From NCBI GenBank assembly GCA_016839785.1, contig JAEOTQ010000039.1, forward strand, positions 1-13,923: a stretch of DNA of 13,923 nucleotides, in the 5' to 3' direction. The stretch comes from Candidatus Hodarchaeota archaeon (GTDB lineage Archaea; Asgardarchaeota; Heimdallarchaeia; Hodarchaeales; Hodarchaeaceae). The position numbers and the translations under genes were made by a program. Numbering within the stretch: the stretch's first letter is position 1; the number at the start of each line of letters is the position of its first letter. The notes under the pieces are model-generated. The model was not told the DNA's origin. It was given only the letters and a program-made list of their open reading frames with translations, and made no database searches. Below are positions 1-13,923 of the stretch, piece after piece.

Positions 1-30
1 AATTTCAAGAATTCTCATGAGGTTTATTCT

Positions 31-1020
31 ATGTCACAAGAAAAATATCGTTTTGATTTAAGTGATGGATTTGGAAAAGAGGATATATTTGCAATATTCG
101 GCTCAATTTGGCATTTTTTTGCATTCATTTTGAAATTGATCTTCTATCCTTATGTATGGATTTTTAGAATGTTTGGACGGTCAATTCGTTTCGCTCGTAC
201 TAAAAAATCCCCAGAAAAGGCCCTAGAAGCCGATGAACGCAGTTTTATTGAAAGTGTACCTGGATTTTTTGTCTTAACTGGTTTCTTTGGTGGTATATTG
301 TTCGCCGCTGTCATTTGGTTGTCTGATCAAACCGGTTTGAGTGCCTTTCTGGATGATATTAACCTAACATCTATTATAGAGATGTTGGGACATTTCTTTG
401 GATTCATTTTAGAGGTCATCCTTTGGATTATTGGTATCGATAAGAGAGGACCTGATGGATATGATCGTTTTGGATTATTGGACATCATTTTTGATATATT
501 CTATGAGGGTATCTTACTTAATATCGTAGGATTCGTTGCTCAAGATGCAATCATGACATTTATTGGAATAGGTGTCGTCGGTGTTATTATAGCTATAGTA
601 TGGATCATTATTTCGGAAACAGGAATTGTGGGTGGTATTATAAGTGTCATTGCAAAAACAATCAACTTTATAATAACCGTTCCAACCACATTCTGGGATA
701 GAGCAAACACTATCTACCTTAAGTTTAATCATATCCTATCTTCAATTGTGATTGGACGGGAAAGACTGAATGAAAGAAATATCGGTTTTCATCGCAAGAT
801 CCTATTATTAACTTTAGGATTAGGAATCTATACATTTATTGCAGGCATTGTAGTAGGTGTATCAAACCCCCAAGACTTAATTAGTCCTATTGGATACATT
901 TTTGTAGTTATCTTGGTGCTTGGAATTGGTGTTGGTATTATCGAAATGTTTCTTATTGTTAGAATCTTAGATATAGTTTCTCGCAAGAAATATGTTCCAG
1001 GAAAATCTGGTCAAGAATAA
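31..1020 (+). CDS. Uncharacterised polytopic membrane protein (~7 hydrophobic segments)
   Basis: 329-aa ORF, ATG preceded by GAGGT (19-23). Multiple long Ile/Phe/Gly-rich hydrophobic stretches, basic C-terminal tail. No family motif recognised. Confidence 0.85.
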   Translation: MSQEKYRFDLSDGFGKEDIFAIFGSIWHFFAFILKLIFYPYVWIFRMFGRSIRFARTKKSPEKALEADERSFIESVPGFFVLTGFFGGILFAAVIWLSDQTGLSAFLDDINLTSIIEMLGHFFGFILEVILWIIGIDKRGPDGYDRFGLLDIIFDIFYEGILLNIVGFVAQDAIMTFIGIGVVGVIIAIVWIIISETGIVGGIISVIAKTINFIITVPTTFWDRANTIYLKFNHILSSIVIGRERLNERNIGFHRKILLLTLGLGIYTFIAGIVVGVSNPQDLISPIGYIFVVILVLGIGVGIIEMFLIVRILDIVSRKKYVPGKSGQE

Positions 1021-1034
1021 TTCTATTCGATGGT

Positions 1035-1063
1035 AAGAGGTTTCCTCTTCCTTTTCTTTTTTT
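1035..1063 (+). terminator. Putative intrinsic terminator (short hairpin plus T-tract)
   Basis: AAGAGG-TTT-CCTCTT (1035-1049) followed by CCTTTTCTTTTTTTG, 15 nt after the TAA of the first ORF. Confidence 0.6.
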
Positions 1064-1180
1064 GTCATCACAAAAATCTTGAAAAACGGGGATTGTGAGT
1101 TCTTAGATTAGAACTATTATGACAGACTCAATTAGCCCCTCGTTATCTGACTGGATTAAAGATAGTGGAAGAATAACTTC

Positions 1181-1194
1181 GTTAAATTATAAAA
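1181..1194 (+). promoter_or_regulatory. Possible archaeal TATA box for polB
   Basis: GTTAAATTATAAAA about 65-80 nt upstream of the likely ATG (1261). The AT-rich background makes this weak. Confidence 0.3.
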
Positions 1195-1260
1195 TCAGTT
1201 CTAGAAAATGATCAAGAAAATTCTTTGGTGTCGGTGGTGAATCAGAATCCTGAAATAGAA

Positions 1261-3843
1261 ATGGAATTCATATTACTGGATGCTGATTATTCTATTTCCA
1301 ATGACCAACGAGAATCTAATATTCATTTATGGGGAAGAATAGAACAAAAAAGAGTGGAAGTGGTAGTTACTGGGTTTTTTCCTTATTTTTATGTTGAAGC
1401 ATCAGAGGATACAGTTCAAAAAGTGATTAGAGATAATGGAAAATTTCTCCACTCATGGGTAATTCGAACTGAACTGTGTCATAAGCAAACCTATTTTGGT
1501 GCAGAAAAAAAGGTTCTCACTAAAATTGTTGGTCATCGTCCTTATCAAGTTCCCAAGATTCGTTCAATTTTTGAGCGTGAAGGAATTAAGGTATTTGAGG
1601 CTGATATACCATTTGTTAAACGATTTTTAATTGATCGGAAGCTAAAAGCCCTTCAAACAATCAAAGTAAGAGGGACAACGAGAAATAAGACCTCTGAAGA
1701 AATGGTAATTAACGTGGCTTATCAGAACGTAAAGGTTTCTCACTCTCAAATAGCAGATTTTCAGCCTTCATTTCTTGCATTCGACATTGAAGTAGATGAA
1801 CATGGAGAAACGTTTCAGGAATTGTACTTTCATAAAAAACGGAGAATTACTGCTATTTCTTATGCCTGGGGAAAAGCAGGTGTGGATAAACCGAATGCAA
1901 ATGCCCTCATTCTGACTGCTGATACTGATGGTGCTGAGAAGAGCTTATTACAAGATTTCATTATTAATATAAGAAAAATAGCTCCTGACGTTCTTGTTTC
2001 TTTTAATGGTACCTATTTTGATATTCCGTATCTTAAAGAACGTATGACTCGATATAGTTTATCTTTAGGATCATTGGCACTATTTGAAAAACGCCAAACC
2101 GACATTATTAGAACTAATGTCCCTGTTGATGGATATCGATTGAAAGGGAGGGCAGTTGTCGATTTGATGCCGAAAACACGGTACATCCATCCTTTATCAG
2201 GTCAAAAGAATCTAGACACGATAGCAAATTTATTGTTGGGAGAATCAAAAGTCAAATCAGATAAAAGTCTTGGAGAACTTTGGAGGAATAGCATCAAGGG
2301 GTCTCGAAGTGATGGAGACCAATTCTATCAGTATTCCATAACAGACTCTATTCTAACATTCCGTTTGGTTGCTGAATTAGGATTGATTACTGCAGTTGAA
2401 TTATGTAAACTAGCTGGATACTTATTGCCAGAAGGTTTACTTTCTACTAGTAGAAATATTGGAGAATTCGAATTAATGCGTATTTTACATGATCGAAACA
2501 TTCTTATCCCTTCTAAACCCACAAAATCAGAAATTACAAAGCGAAACTCGTTGAAGGAACAATATCCTCACCTCGGGGGGTGGGTTATTGATCCAGAAGT
2601 GGATGAGGCACTATTTGTGGCTATTTTTGACTTTCGATCACTTTATCCTAATATCGTTCGAACACATAACATATCTGGTGAAACGCTAATCCCCCGTTCT
2701 GAGTCAAAAGCACCTGAAGATCGATTTCTTACACTACCGAGAGGTGCATTTGCAGATCTCATGGACCGTATACTTGCAGAAAGATATAATTCTCTTAAAA
2801 TGTTGAATTCACTTAAAGAACGAAATATTTCTTCCGATACACAAATGAATATCCACCTACTTGAAAAGCAACAACGTTCGTTAAAATTAATGGCCAATTC
2901 ATTGTGTGGGGCGGCTAATTACCCTCGTGGCCGATTCTACCATCATCTCCTATCAAATAGTATTACAGGGATTGCACGGGAGTTATTGGGGGAAAGATTG
3001 CAGAAATGGACAATAGATTTCTCAAAAACGCGAGATTATAATGTAGAAGTACGATATGGTGATACAGATTCAATTTTTTGCGAGTTTATTAGTTCTGCCT
3101 TGAGTCCATCGGAGTTTCTTCCCTCTTTACCTAAAGAGAAGCGAGATAGAAGCATTAAATTACTTGAAGATTATATCCACGAATATCAGCAGTATTTATC
3201 AATGAAACTTCCAGACTTATTAGAACTCAAGCTTGAGGATATCGCTCTTAGAATCATCTTAAAAAAGGGTCGGAAGAAAGCCTATGCTTATCTCTCCCTC
3301 CTTACCCAGGATGTGATAATTCGTGGTTTTGAGGCTGTTCGTTCTGACTGGTCTCCTTTGGCTAAAAAAACTCAGCGAAAACTCCTTGAAATTCTCTTAA
3401 TGGATTTTAGTGATAATCGATTACAAAATGCTCGGAAATTTGTAATTCAAACATGTCGTTTTATCTTGAAGACTCCCCTTAACGACTTACTTCCAGAATT
3501 AAGTATTAGGGGACCTGTAAAACGGGCCCCTACTAAGTATAAAACCCGAACTCCAGCAATTGGTGCCTTCCTCAATTACTGTAAAACTCAAGAATTAGAC
3601 CCTGAGGTTGAATGGAAACAGTGGGATGGTTTTCCATATATTATAGCGAAGAGTGCACTTAAACAACCTCAGTTTAAACGTGCATACCATCCTGATGTTT
3701 TTCGGAATGGTATAAAAGAGATTGATCGTTTTCATTACATAAAAGAGATACTTGGAGCTAGTAATCGGTTTGAGATTTCTATCAATGAGAATGAAGCTCT
3801 CCAAGGTCGTTTTATTATCCCATTAACTGAATTTTTCAATTAG
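1261..3843 (+). CDS. polB: Family B DNA polymerase, archaeal PolB3-like, with 3'-5' exonuclease domain
   Basis: ExoI FDIE (D at 1783), ExoII FNGTYFD (2002-2022), ExoIII YSITD (2332-2346), motif A DFRSLYP (2629-2649), motif B KLMANSLCG (2884-2910), motif C YGDTDS (3055-3072), KKAYA, RGFEAVRSDWS. The ORF track starts at TTG 1225, but ATG 1261 (MEFILLDADY) matches the MILDxDY N-terminus of euryarchaeal PolB. Confidence 0.96.
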   Translation: MEFILLDADYSISNDQRESNIHLWGRIEQKRVEVVVTGFFPYFYVEASEDTVQKVIRDNGKFLHSWVIRTELCHKQTYFGAEKKVLTKIVGHRPYQVPKIRSIFEREGIKVFEADIPFVKRFLIDRKLKALQTIKVRGTTRNKTSEEMVINVAYQNVKVSHSQIADFQPSFLAFDIEVDEHGETFQELYFHKKRRITAISYAWGKAGVDKPNANALILTADTDGAEKSLLQDFIINIRKIAPDVLVSFNGTYFDIPYLKERMTRYSLSLGSLALFEKRQTDIIRTNVPVDGYRLKGRAVVDLMPKTRYIHPLSGQKNLDTIANLLLGESKVKSDKSLGELWRNSIKGSRSDGDQFYQYSITDSILTFRLVAELGLITAVELCKLAGYLLPEGLLSTSRNIGEFELMRILHDRNILIPSKPTKSEITKRNSLKEQYPHLGGWVIDPEVDEALFVAIFDFRSLYPNIVRTHNISGETLIPRSESKAPEDRFLTLPRGAFADLMDRILAERYNSLKMLNSLKERNISSDTQMNIHLLEKQQRSLKLMANSLCGAANYPRGRFYHHLLSNSITGIARELLGERLQKWTIDFSKTRDYNVEVRYGDTDSIFCEFISSALSPSEFLPSLPKEKRDRSIKLLEDYIHEYQQYLSMKLPDLLELKLEDIALRIILKKGRKKAYAYLSLLTQDVIIRGFEAVRSDWSPLAKKTQRKLLEILLMDFSDNRLQNARKFVIQTCRFILKTPLNDLLPELSIRGPVKRAPTKYKTRTPAIGAFLNYCKTQELDPEVEWKQWDGFPYIIAKSALKQPQFKRAYHPDVFRNGIKEIDRFHYIKEILGASNRFEISINENEALQGRFIIPLTEFFN

Positions 3844-4041
3844 AATGAGAAACAAGCTGAATTTTTGCCCAATCAACTCTTTATACGCATTTACAGATGA
3901 TTTTCTCTGAAAGAACCTGAAAAGAGAGTGGTTCGAAAGTCTAGGACAGGCAAAATTTGTGCGTTCTAATGCTTGGTATCTAATACAAGTGAGAAGTTCA
4001 TTCAATTCAGAAATCTAAGTCTCAATCTTTCCTTAAACGTG

Positions 4042-7000
4042 ATGAAAATGATTAAACACAAAGTTATTAGCTTAACAATTTTATTAGTCTTATTACTTGG
4101 GATAGTACAAATTACATCAGCTGATTTAAATACTAATCAAGATAATAAAGCGTTAGATGGTTTGAACAATCAAGAGTTTACTGTTCCAGATTTTGAACCG
4201 GAAATCCAGCCATTAGAGGAACAGGAAATATCCGTTTTGTCAACTTTTGATCCTAGTCCCTTAAATTTAAATAATATGACACCTGAGGTAACATCAAAGG
4301 TTGTTCAAGATGACGATGAGCGATTAATCACTCAAATAGACCTGGAAAAAGAAATAACTCAACCAGATCAACCTTTAAGATATGTTATTCAAGTATCACG
4401 TGGATTAAATCCAATTCCTGGAGAAAAACTCACGATTGAGATCATTAAAGGGGAATATTGGGGATGGTATCATTATTATTATTACGATATTATGGATTAT
4501 GAAGATCGAGTTGTTGAAAGAAAAACAGTCTATACAGATGCAGATGGTCAATATGAAGGTGTATTTCAATCATCTGTACGAGGACGTTACTCAATCATAA
4601 TTCGTGACGATGACAATTACTATTACAAATCTCGGTCCTTTAATATAGCGGATATTGGAATATTTTGGAGAGTATCGCGTGAGTTCGTCAAGGGACAACC
4701 TCACTACTCAGTAGCATATGTTTTAAACACAACAGACTTTTCTCCTATCACAGGTGCTGCTGTAACGTTAACAGGTGAATTATATACTTATGATTATCAA
4801 TTAAGTACTTATTCCCTATACTCTGAAGAATTATTTGGCGGAATCTCTGATGTCCAAGGAGTAACAGAGATCGTCTTTACTCCCCCTTCAAATTTTAGTG
4901 ATAATTATCACTTCATGGCCAATCTCTCGGTAACCTTTGACGGTGAAACAACATATGTTTTACGTGATATCTATAGAGGGGGCAATTATTGGACTTCAGA
5001 TGGTTATCAAGAATTTAGCCCCTATGAGTTTATTGTCACAACTGATAAGCCAATCTATAATCCAGGGGAAACTGTACAAGCACGGATACTTTTGTGGCAT
5101 AATGATTACCTGAAAGCAACAAAAGAACCCATTGCTACGTCATTTACTTTGAAGTTACTTACACCATCTCACCATACATTATTTCAAAAGACTCTCAAAT
5201 CCAACTCGTATGGGGTCGCTATCTATTCATTCGAACTTGATTCTGAAAGTGAACTAGGAGCCTACAGTATTGTAATTCAGAAAGATGAGGTAATAACAAC
5301 AACTGACATCCGTGTGGATAAATATGAAAAACCTGCCTACAGAGTCGGGATAGAATTAGATAAGGAGTATGTTGCTCCTGGTCAGGAGATTTCTGGAACA
5401 TTAAGTGCGATCTATTACTTTGGAAAACCTGTAATTCAAGGACAAGTCGAACTCCTTATTGGTGATATTACAACCCTAACTGGAGTTACTGATGAAGATG
5501 GAATGTGGCAATTCTCCTATAGATTGCCAAGCTCCTTAAAAGATAGTGGTTTATACGCATTATCACTAAATGCGACGGTAACAGATACTGTGAATCGAGA
5601 AGTTAGTATATCCACCTCTATCCAGATAACTGAAGATGTCTATGTCTGGGCATGGGTGAATCCTTGGTTCCCCAAAGCAGATGAAAATGTCACAGTATAT
5701 TTTGGAGCATATCAATACTCTCCAGGATTTTACTATTGGAGGAGTTACCAACCGCTCCCAGAAGCTAAGGTAACAATAAAATTATATGGAATGTTATCAA
5801 CTTCAGTCACTGTATACGTAGCTACTTTTCAATCGCAAACAGATGCAAATGGATATGGTAGATATGAATTTGCCGTTCCACAGGAAATTCTTGTTCTTAC
5901 TACTAGATTTACAGGAGTTGTTGAACTAGATACTGGTGATGGTCGAAATGGGAGGTCCACTTTTTATTTCTCAGTAGATCTTTCTAAGGCAGTAGCATTT
6001 CTTGATTCAGACAATTATTCACGTGGTGAGACGGTAAGTATTAACGTTAATCTTATCAGCATTCTTACATTTAGTCAATTATCTGGGAGTGTTCGTGTAC
6101 GGATCTTTGACACAGATTATGAACTTGTAGGTGAAAAAACGAGTGATGTCCCGACCTCAGGAAAGGAATTTTCATTTGAACTCTCTCCTTATGCTCCCAA
6201 TGGAAAGTATCATGTCCATATCTACGTGAGTAAAACTTTTACTTACGAATGGGGTTCATATAATTATTATAAGTACGATACCTCAGTTACATTTACAGTT
6301 GGGACCTCACAAGAGTTTTCCATGAGTTTGGATAAACCATCCTATACTCTGAGTGACAGTTTGACCCTAACAGGCCAAGTCGAAGGCGAGACCAATGCTC
6401 CTGTTATGATTCAGTTTGTGAAAAAAGGAATTCTAACAACACAATATATCCCATATAGTAATGCTAATTCTTTCAGTCTGACAATTACTGACATAACTAC
6501 TCTTGCACCGAAAGTTTGGATTCATGGATTCGCAATCTTATCCACTGGATTAATTCAAGAAGTACGTTTATACGTGGAAATCGACTCAACTCTTATTGTA
6601 GAAATTGATTCAGACAAAGATGTTTATACACCTGGTGAAGAAGCGCAAATAGATATTCAAGTCTATGATGCAAATAAAAATCCCGTTTCAACGGTTCTTG
6701 CCATTTCATTTATTGATAGTTCAGTATTCGGAGTCGAACCAGATCCTGAAACTGAAACTGAATTCTTTAAGGAACAGGAGTACTGGCCTTCTGTCTGGAC
6801 TGTTACTTCATGGAAAAATCGACAATTAGACTGGTGGTTCTGGTGGTATGACGATTTCTATGGATTAGGTTATGGTGGAGGTTATTGGAGGGGTGGTTTA
6901 ATTGTCCATGATTTCTATGCGTTAGAAGATACCGCTGCTCCCGAACAAGGAGCGAAATCTACTGGTGAAAGTCCACCTGATGCCGATGTTGGCCAAAAAA

Positions 7001-9915
7001 TTAGAGATAATTTACCCGAAAATGCCTATTGGACTCCATTTGTTGTGGTGGAAGATGGTTCAATGTCCATCACTATTACACTTCCTGATACAATTGGTGA
7101 ATGGACAGTAAGAGTTGTTGCTACCTCTTCTGCTTCTGGTATCGGTGTTTTAGAAAAATATACCTTTAAGACATTCATCCCATTCTTTGTTGAAATTGTA
7201 AAAGATCCTTTTGTTCTTCAAGATGATATTTTCGTAATAAAAGGTGTTGTGTACAATTACCTAGGTGAATTAGCTGATATTGATGTTTCTATAGAACCTG
7301 AAGAGGGAATAACAGTCTTGGGTGAAGCATCACAAACAATTCGACTACCTGGTGACTTTTTGGGGGCTATTTCTTGGGCATGTCTAGGTGAAGATGCAAA
7401 CTTTGTAAATGTCACAATTTATGCGACAACTGAACTTAACAATGGCTCTCGTTATTCTGATGCAATAAGAAAAGCGGTAGAAATCGTTCCAAACGGGGTT
7501 GAGGTGGAATTCAAGGCAAGTGGATTCGTCTACGAAGACCCACAATTTGATTATCTACGCTACTCAGAGGCCGTAAAACACGTCGAATTTCTTGAACTAT
7601 CCCTTGGACTGGGAGCGACTGCTATTAGTTCTTGGGAAAGATTAGTGGGTTATCCTTATGGCTGTACAGAGCAGACAATCTCCCGAATTGTGCCTGATAC
7701 TCTAATATTAGATTATCTCAACCAATCCAATCAACTAACGAATGAAACTGCAGATTTATTAACTGATATGATCGTAACTGGCTTATCTCGATTATATAGC
7801 CAGCAACATGCCGATGGAGGATGGGGATGGTGGTCAAGCGACTCCTCACGGGTTTATATGACTGCTCTTGTCCTTTATGGTTTGAGTGCTGTCCGAGATG
7901 TCGGTATCTACGTTGATTTATCAGTGGTAAAAGCAGCGTTACAGTCCCTCTTGGTAAAACAAAACTATGATGGAAGTTGGACTGTAGATTCCTGGCGGAA
8001 TATCGATGGAGTTTCATTTACCGCTTTCGCATTACGATCACTTGTCTATTGGGCGTCTGAACTAACAGACCCAGATCCGATTAATGATGCCATTAGCTAT
8101 ATATCAAATGCATGGAGTGATTCTACAAAGCAATCATCATATTTAGCTGCTCTTTATCTTGATGCTGTATTGGATTCACCATTTGGCACTCCCGCGTTTG
8201 AATCTACCTTACTTTCACATTTAGTGAGTGAGGTTCAGTTCACTGGTGATGGAAATTATTGGAAATACTCCTCATCCACTGGTTATTATTGGAGAGCTCT
8301 AGGGGGACAAGTCGAAATAACTGGATTAGCAGTGAAGGCCTTGGTAAAAACTAACCCTGCCTCCTATATGCCGATCATTCGTGGGGCAATTCAGTGGTTA
8401 TTAGAGAAACAATCTAGATATGGATGGGGAAACACCGCTGATACCTCTGCAGCAATCTCAAGCTTGATTACGATTAGTAAAGAAGGGTTCAGCTCTGATG
8501 AGGATGCAAATGTGAAGGTATTCTTAAATGAGGAAGAGTTAGGTGATTATAATCTATCTGTTGATGGTCAATCTGTAATTTATTTAAATCTCAAGTCTGA
8601 AATTCAACCTGGAGAAAATAACTTCACATTCATAAAATCTGGAGAGGGGAATGTCAGTTATTATTTCTTTAGCCATCAGACGTTGAGATCACTACCTGAT
8701 ATACTCTTACCGTCTGAAGTATCTTCAGCTCCGAATCAAGAAATCAGTGTCCCAATTAAACTAACACCATTGTCATCAGAGGTTTTCGCTGCGAATATAA
8801 CAGTTAACCCAGTACAAGGGGACATTGTTCCAGTTGTTAATCTTCCCCAAACCATCCAATTGTTAACCCAAGAAACAACTTTGAATTACAAATATGAAGC
8901 ACCCGCTACTCCAGGGATTTATTCAATTCCAGGCTTTCAGATAAATTATCTCCTTTCTAACAGTGATCTATCCTCGTTCTCACCAGGGATTATAAGCCGA
9001 CAATATGGACCTATTGATTTAGTGGTGCTTAGCTCCACTGAAGGGATGCTACCTGCTTCATCCCCCGTCCCATCCCATCCTCCTCTACCCGAAGTCAGGA
9101 TGAATCTTCTTACTAAGTCAAGTGTTACTGGCTTAACAATAGATCGAGAATTTTCTAAAGAGAAGTATATCCAACCAGGAGATCTTATTTTGGTCACTCT
9201 CCAAGTAACGAATGAAAATGATACAATGAATTTTCTTATGTTAGAAGAATCTGTGCCAGTTGGCTTCTCTGTTGATCCTAGTACAGTCCAACATTCACAG
9301 GATACATACCAAATTACAAACAGAGGCATTACCTTTTTCTTTGCTCAATTACCAGAAGGAGAAACTGTGGTAAAATACGGATTAATCGCTTCAAATATCC
9401 GTCAATCCTTGGTAATTCCTGCAAAATTATCAAGTATGTATGATGATTGGATTGTGAAAAGTGCCCCCGCAATCTTAGGAGAAGCACGAGTTCCAATTGA
9501 TCCATTAACGGGTGAAATTATCAAAGACTTAAGTTACCCATCTCTTGTAAATCTTAAGCTTTCAGAAGCGCGTGATACTGCTTCCCCTTATCTGAACATT
9601 GAAGTAACTGCAGAGGATAATTGGGGTATTGCCTCTGTAATAGTATATATCAAACAATCGACATGGTTTTCATTTGATTGTTTCGAGAATGATGAGCAGT
9701 GGAATGCCAAAGGTCGAGGATTAACAACAGGGAATGCTCAGATATATGTTGAAATAATGGATTATGCAGGAAATGTCTTTGTGACCAGTGAAAGTGTGCA
9801 TATGCTTGATTTGAGTGTGATCTTTATTCCATTCATCCCCATAATCTCATTAATTGTATTTGCTTTAGTCACTGGAGCTGGAATTAGCGTTTATGTTCGT
9901 AAACGGGGTATCTAA
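4042..9915 (+). CDS. Alpha-2-macroglobulin family thioester-containing protein, secreted and C-terminally membrane anchored
   Basis: Signal peptide (M)KMIKHKVISLTILLVLLLGIVQITSA. MG-domain motifs TDKPIYNPGETV, VDKYEKPAYRV, SDKDVYTPGE. Post-bait IRDNLPENAYW and LPDTIGEW. Thioester YPYGCTEQT (7651-7677). TED motifs QHADGGWGWW, VEITG, WLLEKQ...WGNTADT. MG8 PGDL...VP.GF...PAKLSSMY. C-terminal TM helix plus RKRG. Start likely ATG 4042 or 4048 rather than TTG 3973. Confidence 0.95.
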   Translation: MKMIKHKVISLTILLVLLLGIVQITSADLNTNQDNKALDGLNNQEFTVPDFEPEIQPLEEQEISVLSTFDPSPLNLNNMTPEVTSKVVQDDDERLITQIDLEKEITQPDQPLRYVIQVSRGLNPIPGEKLTIEIIKGEYWGWYHYYYYDIMDYEDRVVERKTVYTDADGQYEGVFQSSVRGRYSIIIRDDDNYYYKSRSFNIADIGIFWRVSREFVKGQPHYSVAYVLNTTDFSPITGAAVTLTGELYTYDYQLSTYSLYSEELFGGISDVQGVTEIVFTPPSNFSDNYHFMANLSVTFDGETTYVLRDIYRGGNYWTSDGYQEFSPYEFIVTTDKPIYNPGETVQARILLWHNDYLKATKEPIATSFTLKLLTPSHHTLFQKTLKSNSYGVAIYSFELDSESELGAYSIVIQKDEVITTTDIRVDKYEKPAYRVGIELDKEYVAPGQEISGTLSAIYYFGKPVIQGQVELLIGDITTLTGVTDEDGMWQFSYRLPSSLKDSGLYALSLNATVTDTVNREVSISTSIQITEDVYVWAWVNPWFPKADENVTVYFGAYQYSPGFYYWRSYQPLPEAKVTIKLYGMLSTSVTVYVATFQSQTDANGYGRYEFAVPQEILVLTTRFTGVVELDTGDGRNGRSTFYFSVDLSKAVAFLDSDNYSRGETVSINVNLISILTFSQLSGSVRVRIFDTDYELVGEKTSDVPTSGKEFSFELSPYAPNGKYHVHIYVSKTFTYEWGSYNYYKYDTSVTFTVGTSQEFSMSLDKPSYTLSDSLTLTGQVEGETNAPVMIQFVKKGILTTQYIPYSNANSFSLTITDITTLAPKVWIHGFAILSTGLIQEVRLYVEIDSTLIVEIDSDKDVYTPGEEAQIDIQVYDANKNPVSTVLAISFIDSSVFGVEPDPETETEFFKEQEYWPSVWTVTSWKNRQLDWWFWWYDDFYGLGYGGGYWRGGLIVHDFYALEDTAAPEQGAKSTGESPPDADVGQKIRDNLPENAYWTPFVVVEDGSMSITITLPDTIGEWTVRVVATSSASGIGVLEKYTFKTFIPFFVEIVKDPFVLQDDIFVIKGVVYNYLGELADIDVSIEPEEGITVLGEASQTIRLPGDFLGAISWACLGEDANFVNVTIYATTELNNGSRYSDAIRKAVEIVPNGVEVEFKASGFVYEDPQFDYLRYSEAVKHVEFLELSLGLGATAISSWERLVGYPYGCTEQTISRIVPDTLILDYLNQSNQLTNETADLLTDMIVTGLSRLYSQQHADGGWGWWSSDSSRVYMTALVLYGLSAVRDVGIYVDLSVVKAALQSLLVKQNYDGSWTVDSWRNIDGVSFTAFALRSLVYWASELTDPDPINDAISYISNAWSDSTKQSSYLAALYLDAVLDSPFGTPAFESTLLSHLVSEVQFTGDGNYWKYSSSTGYYWRALGGQVEITGLAVKALVKTNPASYMPIIRGAIQWLLEKQSRYGWGNTADTSAAISSLITISKEGFSSDEDANVKVFLNEEELGDYNLSVDGQSVIYLNLKSEIQPGENNFTFIKSGEGNVSYYFFSHQTLRSLPDILLPSEVSSAPNQEISVPIKLTPLSSEVFAANITVNPVQGDIVPVVNLPQTIQLLTQETTLNYKYEAPATPGIYSIPGFQINYLLSNSDLSSFSPGIISRQYGPIDLVVLSSTEGMLPASSPVPSHPPLPEVRMNLLTKSSVTGLTIDREFSKEKYIQPGDLILVTLQVTNENDTMNFLMLEESVPVGFSVDPSTVQHSQDTYQITNRGITFFFAQLPEGETVVKYGLIASNIRQSLVIPAKLSSMYDDWIVKSAPAILGEARVPIDPLTGEIIKDLSYPSLVNLKLSEARDTASPYLNIEVTAEDNWGIASVIVYIKQSTWFSFDCFENDEQWNAKGRGLTTGNAQIYVEIMDYAGNVFVTSESVHMLDLSVIFIPFIPIISLIVFALVTGAGISVYVRKRGI

Positions 9916-9917
9916 AT

Positions 9918-9941
9918 CTTTTTTCCCTCTTTTTTTTTCTT
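9918..9941 (+). terminator. Archaeal-type oligo-T terminator
   Basis: CTTTTTTCCCTCTTTTTTTTTCTT immediately after the TAA of the macroglobulin gene. Confidence 0.7.
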
Positions 9942-10167
9942 ATCTTGGTAATAATATGAGAAAAGTCGCTCCTTTATCCGTACCCTCGCTCTCTGTGTAT
10001 AGAATTCCCCCATGAGCTTTGATGATCATACAAATGAACTAGATAAAATACTCGGAATAGTAGCCCAGCTTTTAATAAGAAAAATATTGAATAAGAACCA
10101 GCATTTTGATGCGATTAAATATAGAACTAGTACATGATGAAAAGAAAGCCAATGGATTCTTAAATGG

Positions 10168-10920
10168 CTATTGATCTTGCTCAGCAACAACAGAACGTAT
10201 TTTCTTCAATTCTGTTAACATCTGCTTACGGAGTATCGCGATTCCAGTAGCGCGGTCTTCTTCACGTCGTCCACGAACTTGTGCTAATGGATTTATCGGT
10301 ACTGTTTCTGCTGGTTTTGCGGAAGTTGGAAAGGAGATTTTCGGAATGGATGGTGGGACCAATGGACTTGGCGCTGTTGGTTGTTTGATCTCTGGTTTTG
10401 GTGCAGCAGCAGGTAACGGTTCCGATGCTGCAGTGGGAAACGAAAAACTGATTTGTGGAGCCGGTTCCTCTATTTGGGTAGGTATAGGTTCTGCAGGAAG
10501 TTCAGCTATGGAGGGAATCTTTTCAGGTGTGACAACTGGAATAGGTGTGGGCACTTCAAGTTGGCTTGGTGCAATAACCTCGGGAATCGCTTCTTTTCCT
10601 AGAACGGGAACATGTTTTTTCGAAAGAATATCTGCAGATTCTTGGCCAAACATCGTACGTACTGTATCAGTCACGGGGATATTTAATTCACGGACATCAG
10701 AAAAGTTAAACTCTTGAGAAATGCGTTCCAACGTGGTGGACGTAATAAAACCTTCCAAAAGCGATTCTTTCAGCATCCGTTCGAACCGTAATACTGCCGT
10801 TTGAAATGCAAATACTACATGCGAATACTCCTCGAGAGGAAGATCCTTTAATTTGATAGAAGCGTTGAACTTAAAATTAGCTTTTTTCTTCTCTTCTTTT
10901 CGTTTAAAAAGTTTAACCAC
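10168..10920 (-). CDS. Hypothetical protein: small N-terminal folded domain, long Pro-rich disordered linker, C-terminal WH2-like amphipathic helix
   Basis: 250-aa ORF, GTG start with GAAGG upstream. The second half is rich in P/E/A/I. C-terminus is EEDRATGIAILRKQMLTELKKIRSVVAEQDQ. Confidence 0.85.
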   Translation of the reverse strand: MVKLFKRKEEKKKANFKFNASIKLKDLPLEEYSHVVFAFQTAVLRFERMLKESLLEGFITSTTLERISQEFNFSDVRELNIPVTDTVRTMFGQESADILSKKHVPVLGKEAIPEVIAPSQLEVPTPIPVVTPEKIPSIAELPAEPIPTQIEEPAPQISFSFPTAASEPLPAAAPKPEIKQPTAPSPLVPPSIPKISFPTSAKPAETVPINPLAQVRGRREEDRATGIAILRKQMLTELKKIRSVVAEQDQ

Positions 10921-11128
10921 GGATAATGCCTTCTAACCATACGTCTTGTTTATTTTATTGATTGTCAACTTAAAAACCTAATTAATATAAATGCGGACAG
11001 TTAGGCTAGGCTATTAATCTGAATAGATCCTCTTGTATTTGCAAATTCATTGGATTTAGATGTTTTATTAGACAGTTTCAATGAATTCTTGCTGATCAAG
11101 GAGATATTCACCTCACCTAATTATGTAC

Positions 11129-11178
11129 TGAGGGAAAATATATTCTTCCCTCCTTTTGAGGGAAAATACTTAGAGGGA
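11129..11178. repeat. 12-bp direct repeat flanking an inverted copy (putative operator or RNA structure)
   Basis: TGAGGGAAAATA at 11129-11140 and 11157-11168. Near-perfect inverted copy TATTCTTCCCTC at 11141-11152. Partial GAGGGA at 11173-11178. Confidence 0.75.
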
Positions 11179-11255
11179 CTAAAAAAATTCTTAATTACTC
11201 AATAATAATTCAAATATCAAATTAAATCCTTTTTTATGAGTTGGATGTCAGCAAT

Positions 11256-12326
11256 GTGGTAAAAGCAAGAGTTATTCTAGTCGGAGTGGGTAATGCAACA
11301 TCTGCCTTAGTCCAGGCGTTAAAATATTATACAGAACACGATACGTCTGTATTGAAATATGAAACAATCGGAGGAATGAGGTTAGATGATATTGAGATTG
11401 TTGCAGCCTACGATGTTGTGAAAAGCAAGGTAAATAAAGACTTGAGCGAGGCGATATTCGCTGAACCCAATGTGGCTCCAAAATTTGTTGAATTTTCTTC
11501 ACCTTGGGGTGTTACAGTCAAAGGAGGACCTGTTCTCGATGGTATATCTCCAATGTTAGGGGAAACTGTTGAAGTTATTGTCCCTCCATCAAATCAGAAT
11601 CTTTCTACGGAATTTAAAGAAACTCAAGCGGATATGGTGATTTCTCTTCTTCCCTCTGGAGCAAAAGAAGCTACATATGCGTATGCAAATGCAGCTATTG
11701 AGGCAGATATGGCATTCATAGAGGCAGCACCCACCAGAATATGTTCAGATGATCAATGGGTCAGAAAGTTCAAAAAAGCCGATCTTCCAGTTGTAGGTGA
11801 CGATCTTCAATCTCAACTTGGAGGTACCCGTATCCATAAGGGTATTCTTGAAATGTTAAACTCCTTTGGAGCAAAAGTGAAAAATACGTATCAACTGGAT
11901 GTATCGGGAGGCAGTGAGGGAATGAATACCTTATACACTGATCGAAGATTTGAAAAAAGGCGGATAAAGACGGAAAGCATTAAACGAGTCCTTCCTTACT
12001 TGAGAGATGATGATATAGCTAGTGGAACAACAGATTATCTAGATTTTTTAGGTAATGAACGTACAGGATACTTCTGGATTTACGGAAATTATTTTGTTGA
12101 TACACCGTTTAAAATAGATGTCACAATCAAAACAACCGATGGACCTAATGCTGCAGGAACACTTGTTAATGTAATTAGAGCAACTAAAATTGCGTTAAAT
12201 CGTGGAATTGATGGACCACTCCTTTCAGTATCAGCTTATGGCTTCAAATATCCTCCAGTTCACGTTGGTGAACAGGATGCAGTGAAACGATTCGATGAAT
12301 TCATTGCAGGAGACCGAGCTGACTAA
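11256..12326 (+). CDS. ino1: myo-inositol-1-phosphate synthase family protein (archaeal/actinobacterial type, divergent)
   Basis: Rossmann RVILVGVGNATSALVQ, AAYDV..SKV.KDLSEAIFAEPN, GDDLQSQLGGT, YQLD, DGPNAAG, FKYPP all align with MIPS motifs. Start TTG 11241 or, more likely, GTG 11256. Confidence 0.9.
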   Translation: MVKARVILVGVGNATSALVQALKYYTEHDTSVLKYETIGGMRLDDIEIVAAYDVVKSKVNKDLSEAIFAEPNVAPKFVEFSSPWGVTVKGGPVLDGISPMLGETVEVIVPPSNQNLSTEFKETQADMVISLLPSGAKEATYAYANAAIEADMAFIEAAPTRICSDDQWVRKFKKADLPVVGDDLQSQLGGTRIHKGILEMLNSFGAKVKNTYQLDVSGGSEGMNTLYTDRRFEKRRIKTESIKRVLPYLRDDDIASGTTDYLDFLGNERTGYFWIYGNYFVDTPFKIDVTIKTTDGPNAAGTLVNVIRATKIALNRGIDGPLLSVSAYGFKYPPVHVGEQDAVKRFDEFIAGDRAD

Positions 12327-12345
12327 AAAGTATTATTCTAAAAAA

Positions 12346-12627
12346 ATGAAAAGTGTTCAAATCCTTGCGACAGGCAGAGTACAAGGAGTTTTTTTCAGGG
12401 TATACACCCAGAAATTTGCTCGTGAACTATCCGATGTAACAGGTTATGTCCGAAATCTCCGTGATGGACAAGTGGAAATTTTTGCTGAAGGGCCAGAGAT
12501 ATCATTATCTAAACTAGTAAACTGGGTGCAAACAAAAGGATCACCAGGCTCCAGAATTATGAAAACACAAATGAAATGGGCTGATATTAACGTACGTGAG
12601 TACAGTGATTTTCAAATTACATATTAA
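12346..12627 (+). CDS. acyP: Acylphosphatase
   Basis: GRVQGVFFR phosphate-binding loop with catalytic Arg, and GYVRNLRDGQVE with catalytic Asn. 93 aa from ATG 12346, which avoids the overlap with ino1. Probably co-transcribed with ino1. Confidence 0.95.
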   Translation: MKSVQILATGRVQGVFFRVYTQKFARELSDVTGYVRNLRDGQVEIFAEGPEISLSKLVNWVQTKGSPGSRIMKTQMKWADINVREYSDFQITY

Positions 12628-12657
12628 CCCTTTATGTGATTGGATTGGAGCAAGAAT

Positions 12658-12789
12658 TTACAAATTGTCAATTTTTTCCACAATTTGAGCATATAGTTGT
12701 TCATTCCCTTTGGATCGACTTAGTTCTGCAGCAGTTTGGAAAGATATCCTAAAAATTAATTTGGAAACATTTTTTCCATTGAAGTCCAT
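12658..12789 (-). pseudogene. Short ORF or gene remnant with a TPR-like terminal helix pair (43 aa)
   Basis: Manual translation: MDFNGKNVSKLIFRISFQTAAELSRSKGNEQLYAQIVEKIDNL*. Below the ORF-track cutoff. Resemblance judged by eye only. Confidence 0.3.
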
Positions 12790-12838
12790 TGTTATATGGA
12801 ATCTACCTTCAATTTTAGATCCACTGGATACTTATTTA

Positions 12839-13128
12839 ATGAAACCATATATCACTTTTACACTTGATTTCGAATATCGGGAAAGAAAAAGTACTCTCCT
12901 ACAATCTTTACTGAGTATCTGTCCATTTGATCATCTTCCAAGAGAAATAAGGACAATTCGGAAAGATGACGTAAGAATACCTTTGAAATCCAGGTTTTTT
13001 TCCAAGAAGTGGAATATCTCGAAGTTATCTACCAACATCTTGAAAAACAATCTAAAGAGATGGAACAACAACTGAACAGGGTAACCGAGGGGAAGGTTTC
13101 AAATATTGAGATTGGAGTCGTAAATTGA
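12839..13128 (+). pseudogene. Frameshifted small protein (~96 aa if repaired), predicted beta-alpha-beta-beta-alpha-beta pattern
   Basis: ATG 12839 gives MKPYITFTLDFEY...REIRTIRKDD. The -1 frame is open from 12970 and reads RKNTFEIQVFFQEVEYLEVIYQHLEKQSKEMEQQLNRVTEGKVSNIEIGVVN* (TGA 13126-13128), which is more protein-like than the 0-frame tail. Confidence 0.55.
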
Positions 13129-13162
13129 GGAGAGAGAATGTAATTCCAGAATTATTCTCCCA

Positions 13163-13816
13163 TCAATTATCATTGTGAAAATCCTCATCAATTTCCGGTA
13201 TTACGGTAGAAGCAATTCTTTTAAAGAAAGCTAATTCATCTATTTGATGGTAATCAGATAAAATAAGTGAATCATTTATAATCTTTAAATAAAGAGTATT
13301 TCCATAATACACTTCATTATCAAAGACGAAAAAATCTTTGTTTTTTGCATTTGGGGTGAGGCGATTGAATGGAGATTCAAAATTCAATGAAAAAGAATCT
13401 AGTACACTGTAAATCCCATCGGGAAGTATTTCAAATCCAATTAGTGTGTCATTCATAATCCATAATGGAATAGCTAATTTCTTATTCTTCCAATGGCCAA
13501 TAAGAGCTAAATTGATCGAATCTTGATGATCCCGTTGAATGAAACTAATAGAACAGTCTTGGAAAAAATGGATTATAAATTTCCAGAAGAAATCTTTCGC
13601 TTGGGAAAAGTAAATTGGTAGGGGGAGTTCGAAAAGAGTGGATAATGATGCCCCAAAATCACTCACATCAAACTCCACCATCCAGGAATGTAAGTCTAAC
13701 TTAAGATAATCACGTATCGAATGAATTTCTACAATTTTACTCGAATGCTTCATTGTCTTCATCTTCGCTATTCTCTGTCTATGTACTTTATAAGCACCTA
13801 AAAATCCAGTTTTCAC
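13163..13816 (-). CDS. Hypothetical protein (217 aa)
   Basis: GTG start preceded by a strong SD GGAGGTGA and overlapping the upstream stop. Globular composition, no recognised motif. Confidence 0.85.
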   Translation of the reverse strand: MKTGFLGAYKVHRQRIAKMKTMKHSSKIVEIHSIRDYLKLDLHSWMVEFDVSDFGASLSTLFELPLPIYFSQAKDFFWKFIIHFFQDCSISFIQRDHQDSINLALIGHWKNKKLAIPLWIMNDTLIGFEILPDGIYSVLDSFSLNFESPFNRLTPNAKNKDFFVFDNEVYYGNTLYLKIINDSLILSDYHQIDELAFFKRIASTVIPEIDEDFHNDN

Positions 13817-13923
13817 GCATCACCTCCCTGAAAATGAAGCTGTGGCAGTATTTCTTGTCGTACAAATCGGAGAAACCAGCGAGCTATACATACTAATTCA
13901 TCCATTTGTTTAACTGTCACTAA
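13813..13923 (-). CDS. 3' end of an upstream gene running off the window (partial)
   Basis: Open frame from the window edge: ...LVTVKQMDELVCIARWFLRFVRQEILPQLHFQGGDA*. Its TGA (13813-13815) overlaps the next GTG as GTGA. Confidence 0.7.
   Translation of the reverse strand, partial: LVTVKQMDELVCIARWFLRFVRQEILPQLHFQGGDA
13820..13827 (-). promoter_or_regulatory. Shine-Dalgarno site GGAGGTGA
   Basis: Plus-strand TCACCTCC at 13820-13827, which matches the 16S rRNA 3' tail sequence, lies just upstream of GTG 13816. Confidence 0.85.

Follow-up and report, generated by a model that had tools for sequence, protein, structure and literature searches.

The A2M gene and its product

The window analyzed here is a 13,923-nt stretch of contig JAEOTQ010000039.1 (positions 1 to 13,923, forward strand) in assembly GCA_016839785.1 of a Candidatus Hodarchaeota archaeon. 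A single long open frame (3973..9915, + strand) encodes a protein with a predicted secretion signal, an intact thioester motif and a C-terminal transmembrane (TM) helix, whose membership in the alpha-2-macroglobulin (A2M)/thioester-protein superfamily is secure. The protein belongs to a distinct clade of Asgard archaeal proteins and is probably, though by no means certainly, a type-I-anchored surface trap that would be triggered by proteases and hold them covalently. The features of the gene are listed below, with Pfam scores in bits and confidence in the AlphaFold models as the predicted local distance difference test (pLDDT).

4042..9915, + strand: coding sequence, stop included, of the 1957-aa membrane-anchored thioester alpha-2-macroglobulin; alternative start ATG 4048
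4042..4122, + strand: predicted Sec-type signal peptide, residues 1-27 (...ITSA/DL), lipobox Cys absent
4123..4323, + strand: acidic N-terminal stretch, residues 28-94, predicted disordered (pLDDT <50 at model residues 1-65; low conservation at 21-40)
4324..6819, + strand: all-beta macroglobulin (MG) array including MG2 and A2M_BRD (Pfam, AlphaFold N-half, Foldseek)
5029-5313, + strand: MG2 (Pfam), residues 330-424, 97 bits
6322-6729, + strand: A2M_BRD, bait-region domain (Pfam), residues 761-896, 21.2 bits, under the cut-off of 22.7
6820..6996, + strand: candidate bait region, residues 927-985, a Trp/Tyr/Gly-rich stretch and then a hypervariable disordered linker (59 residues in all)
7024..7290, + strand: A2M domain (MG7), PF00207, residues 995-1083, 55.7 bits; aligns to human and frog A2M
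7606..8481, + strand: thioester domain (TED; alpha/alpha toroid) with beta (CUB-like) flanks, residues 1189-1480; TED in Pfam at 1197-1475, 93 bits; AlphaFold helices
7660..7674, + strand: thioester motif G-C-T-E-Q (Cys1208, Gln1211), residues 1207-1211, read from the sequence
9040..9123, + strand: Pro/Ser-rich variable linker before the last MG domain, residues 1667-1694 (pLDDT <50 at model residues 708-735; low conservation)
9166..9444, + strand: MG8-type domain, bMG10 model PF17973, residues 1709-1801, 30.3 bits against a cut-off of 26.2
9541..9807, + strand: extra Ig-like beta-sandwich stalk between MG8 and the membrane, residues 1834-1922 (AlphaFold strands, pLDDT ~90)
9817..9912, + strand: predicted C-terminal TM helix (residues 1926-1952, nt 9817-9897) and cytoplasmic tail RKRGI (hydropathy; AlphaFold helix)

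Translation from ATG 4042 gives a protein of 1957 aa that ends at a TAA stop codon (9913-9915). The real start may be ATG 4048, the second Met (MIKHK), because close orthologues start there. A pseudogene was rejected, the frame of 1980 codons being open and stops being absent from the orthologous frames, and a chance open reading frame (ORF) is excluded by the Pfam scores and hundreds of homologues. An initial annotation of this DNA had placed the ORF at 4042-9915, GCTEQ at 7660-7674, three Cys residues in the protein and T-tracts past the stop, and each of these was confirmed. PF00207 matches once in the 4.04-Mb, 84.5%-complete genome, indicating a single-copy gene, and tblastn searches of the genome with the N-terminal, middle and C-terminal extra parts of the protein returned the gene itself only, with no paralogue of the stalk.

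Domain architecture and structural models

The domain order was read from Pfam and from AlphaFold models of two halves, for each of which that half of the window protein was aligned with the corresponding region of 27 orthologues from homologous loci. The complete A2M architecture proposed in the initial annotation is found by the Pfam scan and by AlphaFold with Foldseek alike. The C-half model (residues 960-1957; mean pLDDT 82.3, predicted template-modelling score (pTM) 0.72) runs from a disordered stretch (960-1017) through the MG7 sandwich and a beta-flanked, 12-helix TED (1189-1480) into further beta domains, followed by the disordered Pro/Ser linker, MG8/bMG10, the extra beta sandwich and a terminal helix (1931-1956). 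The N-half model (28-1000; pLDDT 74, pTM 0.64) consists of successive beta sandwiches and is disordered at both ends (28-92 and 927-1000). Some 155 residues follow the bMG10 match and comprise the stalk domain, the TM helix and the tail, and bMG10 is thus not the end of the protein. The stalk domain has no Pfam match; in an Atlas search with residues 1820-1957 Ig-like families scored 0.82-0.88, which is under the 0.9 level and a lead only. Pfam gave no match in the window protein to the eukaryotic receptor-binding model PF07677 or to anaphylatoxin, C345C and LDLa domains, and an NCBIfam scan returned only sub-threshold squalene-cyclase matches, which fall on the TED.

In Foldseek searches of the PDB, the C-half matched the alpha chains of native C5 and C3 (E = 2e-31; query-normalized template-modelling score (TMq) 0.51-0.53, with 13-15% identity in the structural alignments) and native frog A2M (7s62; TMq 0.55), and C3b gave a TMq of 0.24. 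The better fit of native C3, C5 and A2M than of C3b suggests that the C-half is modelled in a closed, native-like arrangement. The TED may be inserted in a CUB domain and packed against MG8, as in the native state of the family: it has beta strands on both sides, and the entire C-half can be superposed on native C3, C5 and A2M. For the N-half the best match was ECAM (5a42, E = 7e-28), followed by CD109, A2ML1 and the C5 beta chain. In sequence comparisons the MG7-TED core was closest, among solved structures, to the eukaryotic A2Ms (E = 3e-31 to 5e-30, with A2ML1 among the matches, to 1e-24), then TEP1 (6e-20), C4 (7e-17) and CD109 (1e-15), whereas ECAM and Salmonella A2M reached only E = 1e-4.

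Thioester site and candidate bait region

The protein contains three Cys residues in all (1114, 1208 and 1880), and the CxEQ motif around Cys1208 is kept in 79 of 79 members of the clade described below. Conservation was expressed as the mean top-residue frequency over 17 Hodarchaeales-type orthologues, with gaps counted across all 28 sequences. The most conserved 20-aa window is 1201-1220, around the thioester (0.89), and the least conserved ones are 961-980 (0.33), 21-40 (0.35), 941-960 (0.38) and those within 1661-1700 (0.40-0.41). The windows covering 941-980, with 26-46% gapped cells, fall in the candidate bait region, where pLDDT is below 30 in both AlphaFold models. Upstream of the variable stretch lies a conserved aromatic motif, YWPSV..SWK..Q..WWFWW, and its downstream end is right before the conserved IRDNLPENAxW start of MG7, the site of A2M baits.

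Reviews of the thioester-containing proteins (TEPs) place the catalytic residue ~110 residues past the thioester (PMC7016707). In a HMMER alignment to human A2M, Asn1320, 112 residues past Cys1208, pairs with the first Asn of the LLNN stretch. In the 28 orthologues this column holds Asn in 10, Ser in 10, Gly in 6 and His in only 2. The first Asn of LLNN is presumably the counterpart of the C3 His. An amine-reactive, A2M-like thioester appears more likely than a C3-like one: without a conserved His, the residue by which C3-type thioesters are turned towards hydroxyls, amines (Lys) are the probable target.

Signal peptide and membrane anchor

The N-terminus, MKMIKHKVISLTILLVLLLGIVQITSA/DL, combines a positively charged n-region with a hydrophobic core and a TSA site, and there is no Cys in it or anywhere in residues 1-1113; a lipoprotein was rejected for want of a Cys in the signal. 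The C-terminus carries a hydrophobic stretch of 27 residues. The topology given in the initial annotation, a Sec signal free of a lipobox and a C-terminal TM helix with a basic tail, was borne out, the tail reading RKRGI. A hydropathy test finds an N-terminal hydrophobic stretch in 73 of the 79 clade members. A C-terminal TM helix, scored as a 19-residue Kyte-Doolittle mean of at least 1.6 within the last 120 residues, is present in 78 of 79, the exception being a 1501-residue partial protein. Only one of 74 other matches passes this test, and anchor plus stalk are absent from 73 of the 74; these counts leave out P0052 (a 1123-aa partial protein) and P0113-P0115 (TM-bearing, outside the clade). 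Loki-type members end in a charged, presumably cytoplasmic tail of 38-53 residues and Hodarchaeales-type members in one of ~5 residues.

The tail (...LDLSVIFIPFIPII...) lacks a PGF motif and gave no sorting-signal match in NCBIfam, and a substrate of an archaeosortase was rejected on the absence of that motif. The conserved basic stop-transfer tail behind a 27-residue helix is the pattern of a retained TM anchor. A retained, plain type-I TM anchor with the ectodomain, of some 1900 residues, outside is the simplest reading of the sequence, since there is neither a PGF-type motif nor an archaeosortase match. In the genome, 152 ORFs of at least 200 aa have a C-terminal helix and basic tail; that of the A2M is of the plain type. 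Many of the 152 carry xPGF after Thr-rich linkers and resemble PGF-CTERM archaeosortase substrates (for example C178 + 4387, C207 + 26876 and C135 + 47353), yet the Exosortase_EpsH model finds no match in the 84.5%-complete genome.

The anchor and stalk also bear on another function, that of a structural or adhesive protein of an envelope lacking an S-layer, whose thioester would bond a syntrophic partner or particulate substrate. The A2M is the second largest of the 152 ORFs and places an Ig-like domain beside the membrane, and the complex surface proteins described for L. ossiferum have been discussed in terms of cell-cell contact (PMC9834061). However, the full A2M machinery is kept (bait, MG7, CUB-like flanks and a TED predicted to be buried), which simple adhesion does not need, and the single-copy gene has no other surface-protein genes adjoining it. 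The known bacterial thioester adhesins use another fold. We regard an adhesin as improbable.

Host and distribution of the family

The closest database matches are proteins of 1940-1961 residues with 81-84% identity, those that bear a name being called Candidatus Hodarchaeales, and the record of Heimdallarchaeota archaeon B3_Heim contains an orthologue with nearly identical leader and tail. These matches confirm an archaeal host and its suggested place among the Asgard archaea. A bacterial contig, the case that was to be feared for the initial annotation, was rejected on the named orthologues and on synteny.

Whole-length and TED-only searches combined gave a family of 79 proteins assigned to one clade, with identity to the window protein down to 27%. 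About one third of them bear Asgard names (Hodarchaeales, Heimdallarchaeota, Thorarchaeota, Promethearchaeota, Promethearchaeum syntrophicum and Harpocratesius), and one member (P0047) is from the cultured species Promethearchaeum syntrophicum. The NCBI annotation of the clade proteins is only 'MG2 domain-containing protein'. A profile of the C-terminal half matched 3451 of 1.84 billion representatives at E <=1e-30, of which only ~30 match through stalk and tail (complete ones of 1948-2129 aa; the rest fragments). A giant repeat protein was also seen among the representatives: P0186, of 6303 aa, has 40 stretches matching the MG8-type part of the profile (702-827) and a C-terminal TM helix.

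In a scan of 400 genomes of the phylum, 47 matched at E <=1e-20; by our reading of the scan table 39 are strong (E <=1e-70), and the remaining 8 match other A2M types weakly. The own genus is represented in 19 of 21 genomes, a sister family of the same class in 0 of 31, and other families in 8 of 14 and 10 of 135. The family is old within Asgard archaea but patchy.

Phylogenetic position

Four trees were calculated from the MG7-TED core (583-594 columns, cut with phmmer) on hand-picked subsets of the matches, many of which differ in composition, with quick tree searches. The Asgard clade is monophyletic in tree 1 (71 rows, quick search, posterior mean site frequency (PMSF) mixture model; support 99) and in tree 2, to which 16 named loci were added (87 rows; support 100). 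Tree 2 places every named bacterial bMG10-type row in a separate cluster (92). The Asgard clade falls in a cluster (92), of no settled internal order, with Undinarchaeales and P0113/P0115, Nanoarchaeia, Bathyarchaeota and a group containing eukaryotes. None of the named non-Asgard archaeal rows (Undinarchaeales, Nanoarchaeia and Bathyarchaeota) falls within the Asgard clade, and no TM tail is present in the two whose C-terminus is complete. Nesting inside a bacterial clade with the same anchor, which the initial annotation had raised as the mark of an ordinary transfer, is not seen in these TED-core trees.

A bacterial-type A2M acquired by recent horizontal transfer, with no biology particular to the clade, is already disfavoured and in our view highly improbable. 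In its favour, the bacterial bMG10 model recognizes the last MG domain, YPYGCxEQT(I/M)S(R/K) is like the motif of acidobacterial and chloroflexal A2Ms, the spread in the phylum is patchy, and such transfers into Methanomicrobia are reported in Makarova et al. (PMC8416519). Against these points, the Asgard clade is monophyletic (99-100 in the Shimodaira-Hasegawa-like approximate likelihood ratio test (SH-aLRT)) and lies outside the named bacterial clade in all four trees, the nearest non-Asgard proteins share only ~30% identity in the TED, synteny is conserved in 8 of 8 Hodarchaeales-type loci, the G+C content of the gene (0.34-0.42) is similar to that of its flanks, and anchor and stalk are missing from 73 of 74 other matches.

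In tree 2 the two vertebrate proteins group with 13 others (97), all of which carry the eukaryote-type PF07677 in precomputed Pfam lists and five of which begin with lipoprotein signals; PF07677 is absent from every Asgard row among the homologues listed. The free trees pair eukaryotes with bacterial lipoproteins. In tree 3 (35 rows, LG+G4, a model more prone to long-branch artefacts than the mixture model), constraining Asgard and eukaryotic proteins together costs 0.66 log-likelihood units (approximately unbiased (AU) test, p = 0.48), so that this grouping is neither rejected nor supported. The eukaryotic placement is weak because there are only two eukaryotic rows, both vertebrate and both long-branched. 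The C-terminally anchored Asgard thioester proteins could conceivably represent the archaeal stem lineage of the eukaryotic A2M/TEP/complement family, inherited vertically. We keep this doubtful reading in view because the core is far nearer to eukaryotic A2M than to ECAM, because of the shared cluster and because of the AU value. If it were true, the archaeal ancestor of eukaryotes would already have carried a covalent, protease-triggered defence on the surface of its naked membrane, and secondary transfer would account for the bacterial lipoproteins that contain eukaryote-like domains.

Tree 4 (72 rows, with representatives from the profile search added, less P0204, from which no core could be cut) shows C-terminal TM tails in three places: the Asgard clade (100), a group of 12 giants, mostly 2400-2800 aa long, that falls in that half of the tree too (98), and 9 proteins of mostly ~1600 aa inside the bacterial half (97). 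The C-terminal TM anchor of the initial annotation is therefore kept in the Asgard clade but is not exclusive to it, two other prokaryotic A2M clades sharing it; among 80 named loci, a TM helix at the end occurs only in the 3 Asgard ones.

Members of the giant clade (P0113, P0115, P0178, P0179, P0184, P0185, P0188-P0190 and P0203) end in a TM helix followed by a charged tail and carry GCTEQ-type motifs (two with D, one with N), and P0113 and P0115 share an Asp-rich N-terminal repeat. Searches of species-representative genomes with P0113 and P0115 gave best matches of 23-29% identity. An Undinarchaeales locus in a DPANN genome, with a 2500-aa A2M-like frame lacking both CxEQ and a C-terminal TM helix, groups with the giant clade. 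The ~1600-aa clade (P0114, P0191, P0202, P0205, P0206, P0211, P0229, P0252 and P0276) stands beside a Bacillota locus among the named bacterial rows and may have gained the anchor independently or been transferred into archaea.

Comparison with known thioester proteins

Bacterial type I A2Ms carry CxEQ and are encoded beside pbpC (PMC5764988), and PDB entries label YfhM a lipoprotein. The window protein is similar to ECAM (YfhM) and Salmonella A2M (Sa-A2M) in being a monomer-sized multi-MG protein with a bait region, CxEQ and a bMG10-type last domain; ECAM is likewise tethered to the cytoplasmic membrane, faces outward and is proposed to capture proteases at the cell envelope. As the initial annotation had stated, it departs from the E. 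coli type in lacking a lipobox and a pbpC neighbour, and pbpC is absent beside the A2M gene in the window and in the orthologous loci. ECAM is held by an N-terminal lipid on the lipobox Cys, in contrast to the C-terminal TM helix of the Asgard protein, which is ~300 residues longer and has the extra stalk domain. In sequence the core resembles ECAM and Sa-A2M only weakly (E = 1e-4), and eukaryotic A2M far more closely (E = 1e-30).

Human A2M, frog A2Moo and A2ML1 are the best sequence matches of MG7-TED among solved structures (E = 3e-31 to 1e-24), and they share with the Asgard protein a hypervariable bait directly before MG7 and an Asn at the aligned position. Unlike it, eukaryotic A2Ms are soluble, often oligomeric and anchor-free, end in a PF07677 domain and contain 31-32 Cys (in two eukaryotic matches) compared with 3.

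C3, C4, C5 and TEP1 have the same domain order from MG7 to MG8, with the TED between beta (CUB-like) stretches. Another possible function is that of a complement- or TEP-like tagger, in which the thioester, once activated by proteolysis, would bind the surfaces of viruses, vesicles or foreign cells touching the archaeal surface, to mark or immobilize them as an innate defence of the cell surface. Such a role would fit the core sequence, which is nearer to eukaryotic A2M, TEP1, C4 and CD109 than to ECAM, the fold match to native C3 and C5, the conserved outward-facing tether and the position of the clade on the side of the tree that also holds eukaryotic sequences. The Asgard protein differs from C3, C4 and C5, however, in having no match to anaphylatoxin, C345C or PF07677 and no conserved catalytic His, the hydroxyl-directing residue being present in only 2 of 28 orthologues. 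A convertase context is missing as well, with no conserved neighbouring convertase-like protease or receptor gene at the loci examined, and the long hypervariable bait is a hallmark of A2M rather than a defined convertase site. A tagger is therefore a rather unlikely function, though a less remote one than adhesion.

CD109 has an intact thioester and a C-terminal surface tether, and matches in sequence (E = 1e-15) and fold. Its tether is a glycosylphosphatidylinositol (GPI) anchor, compared with the conserved TM helix and basic tail of the Asgard clade. Archaea are not known to make GPI anchors. The GPI lipid of CD109 is added once a C-terminal signal has been removed (PMC7016707). The trees include no CD109 row and so show no specific relationship to it. 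In insects and molluscs, MCR, also of the TEP family, spans the membrane with a C-terminal helix; its thioester site is mutated and it contains an LDLa domain (PMC7016707). The thioester motif, by contrast, is intact in all 79 Asgard-clade proteins, and the window protein has no LDLa match. Of the parallel to animal proteins drawn in the initial annotation, the shared topology stands; it is a parallel in topology only, since no functional thioester survives in MCR (PMC7016707).

Archaeal A2M homologues with CxEQ were described by Makarova et al. in 2021 (27 proteins from 24 genomes, mainly Halobacteria and Methanomicrobia; PMC8416519). They resemble the window protein in having a signal peptide, Ig/MG domains and a TED with CxEQ, and a role in defence or conflict was proposed for them (PMC8416519). 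Their loci contain Ig-domain proteins, peptide transporters, endoproteases or arCOG14565 (PMC8416519), none of which was found in the window. The word Asgard does not occur in the main text of that article (PMC8416519). No paper on Asgard A2Ms was found in a literature search that lacked most subscription journals and supplements. As to the novelty that the initial annotation had wanted checked, the kind of protein, a prokaryotic and archaeal A2M, is already known, archaeal CxEQ forms having been published in 2021 (PMC8416519), and the anchor recurs in other clades. The combination of an intact thioester, a proteinaceous C-terminal TM anchor, a stalk and a distinct Asgard clade is apparently found in no described family.

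Proposed function

Taken as a protease-triggered covalent trap, the protein would work as follows. The Cys1208-Gln1211 thioester would be buried in the native protein, as it is in native C3 and A2M, while the exposed bait would be cut by a foreign or self protease. The ensuing rearrangement would allow the thioester to react with a nucleophile of the protease, likely an amine (Lys), and the protease would be left covalently fixed to the membrane-tethered trap. The role would be to shield the naked membrane and the surface proteins from extracellular proteases, the job proposed for ECAM in the periplasm with another anchor. Such a guard seems likely because cultured Asgard relatives have no ordered S-layer and live among protein degraders: an ordered S-layer is absent from L. 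ossiferum, which bears complex surface proteins on a single membrane (PMC9834061), and an S-layer protein was not detected in the proteome of P. syntrophicum (PMC11284389).

Several points weigh against a protease trap. The S-layer evidence comes from cultures of Lokiarchaeia, not Hodarchaeales, and the patchy spread of the gene (39 of 400 genomes; 0 of 31 in the sister family) means that Asgard envelopes do not in general need such a protein. For every member, thioester formation, bait cleavage and protease capture are extrapolated from homologues. Hydropathy and AlphaFold, rather than dedicated predictors, are the source of the TM and signal assignments, and the position equivalent to the catalytic His was mapped with one HMMER alignment combined with the correspondence of C3 to A2M. 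Proteins of the TEP family also act as opsonins or junction proteins, and a protease trap is therefore not the sole role that fits the anatomy.

Complement, and protease defence in insects and vertebrates, are built around thioester proteins. How these first arose is a matter of dispute, and bacterial A2Ms have been read as transfers from animals; the Asgard clade adds a third party to this question. It also supplies a named candidate for the large surface proteins on Asgard cells without an S-layer, and, if the protein is indeed a surface protease trap, it would be the first extracellular anti-protease defence proposed for Asgard archaea. The recombinant ectodomain offers a ready biochemical target, and a member is present in the cultured Promethearchaeum syntrophicum.

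Genomic context and environmental sequences

The remaining features of the window are the following.

1225-3843, + strand: family-B DNA polymerase gene, conserved synteny
3844..4041, + strand: intergenic, between the genes for family-B DNA polymerase and the A2M; presumed to hold the A2M gene's own promoter
9919..9938, + strand: T-tracts T6 (9919-9924) and T9 (9930-9938), candidate archaeal-type oligo-T terminator, read from the sequence
10168-10920, - strand: 250-aa protein without a family, conserved synteny
11241-12326, + strand: myo-inositol-1-phosphate synthase gene, conserved synteny
12295-12627, + strand: acylphosphatase gene, overlapping the preceding frame by 32 nt, conserved synteny

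In all 8 Hodarchaeales-type loci (the window and seven others) the A2M gene is immediately preceded, on its own strand, by the family-B polymerase gene. Downstream, the gene for the 250-aa protein is found on the opposite strand in 6 of 8 loci, followed by those for myo-inositol-1-phosphate synthase and acylphosphatase. Such synteny, seen here among close kin, points to no partner. ORF clustering and Pfam, run without arCOG models, found no Ig-domain surface proteins, peptide transporters or endoproteases in the window or in 16 orthologous loci. The description of the gene as standalone thus holds for the Hodarchaeales loci but not for the Loki-type loci (L040-L047), where in 8 of 8 a gene for a membrane-bound winged helix-turn-helix (wHTH) protein sits shortly before the A2M gene and is read in the same direction (for example L045:6173-6685 + and L044:13009-13548 -), although in one of them the crude ORF list places another ORF between the two. 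This gene encodes 154-202 aa, with a winged-helix domain followed by membrane helices, and its Pfam matches are weak and of TrmB/ArsR type (E = 0.0025-0.005, under the cut-off). Five paralogues of the wHTH gene occur elsewhere in the window's genome (C140, C197, C79, C157 and C75), none beside the A2M gene.

A TTTATA element is located near 3881 in the intergenic region upstream of the A2M gene, and both T-tracts are directly 3' of the stop codon. A scan for sigma-70 promoters and hairpin terminators gave 21 promoter-like sites in comparison with 22.9 expected, and such a scan is uninformative for an archaeon.

Near-identical DNA is present in sediment metagenomes. Run X3 of a second study yielded 28 matching contigs, 26 of them at >=95% identity; the small-share runs X6-X16 are no evidence of habitat. 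One RNA-library run yielded six contigs of 151-160 nt on nt 4754-7034, five of them at >=99%, which is a weak hint of transcription of the A2M gene, DNA carry-over being possible. RNA-library run X10 left the flanking genes without contigs, which proves nothing, and run X15 is probably DNA; the runs were picked by this gene and so give no ranking of expression. In one contig of run X3, 64 nt of the downstream intergenic region (10039-10104) are swapped for 13 other letters and the T9 tract (9930) is one T short, a strain-level variation just past the candidate terminator.

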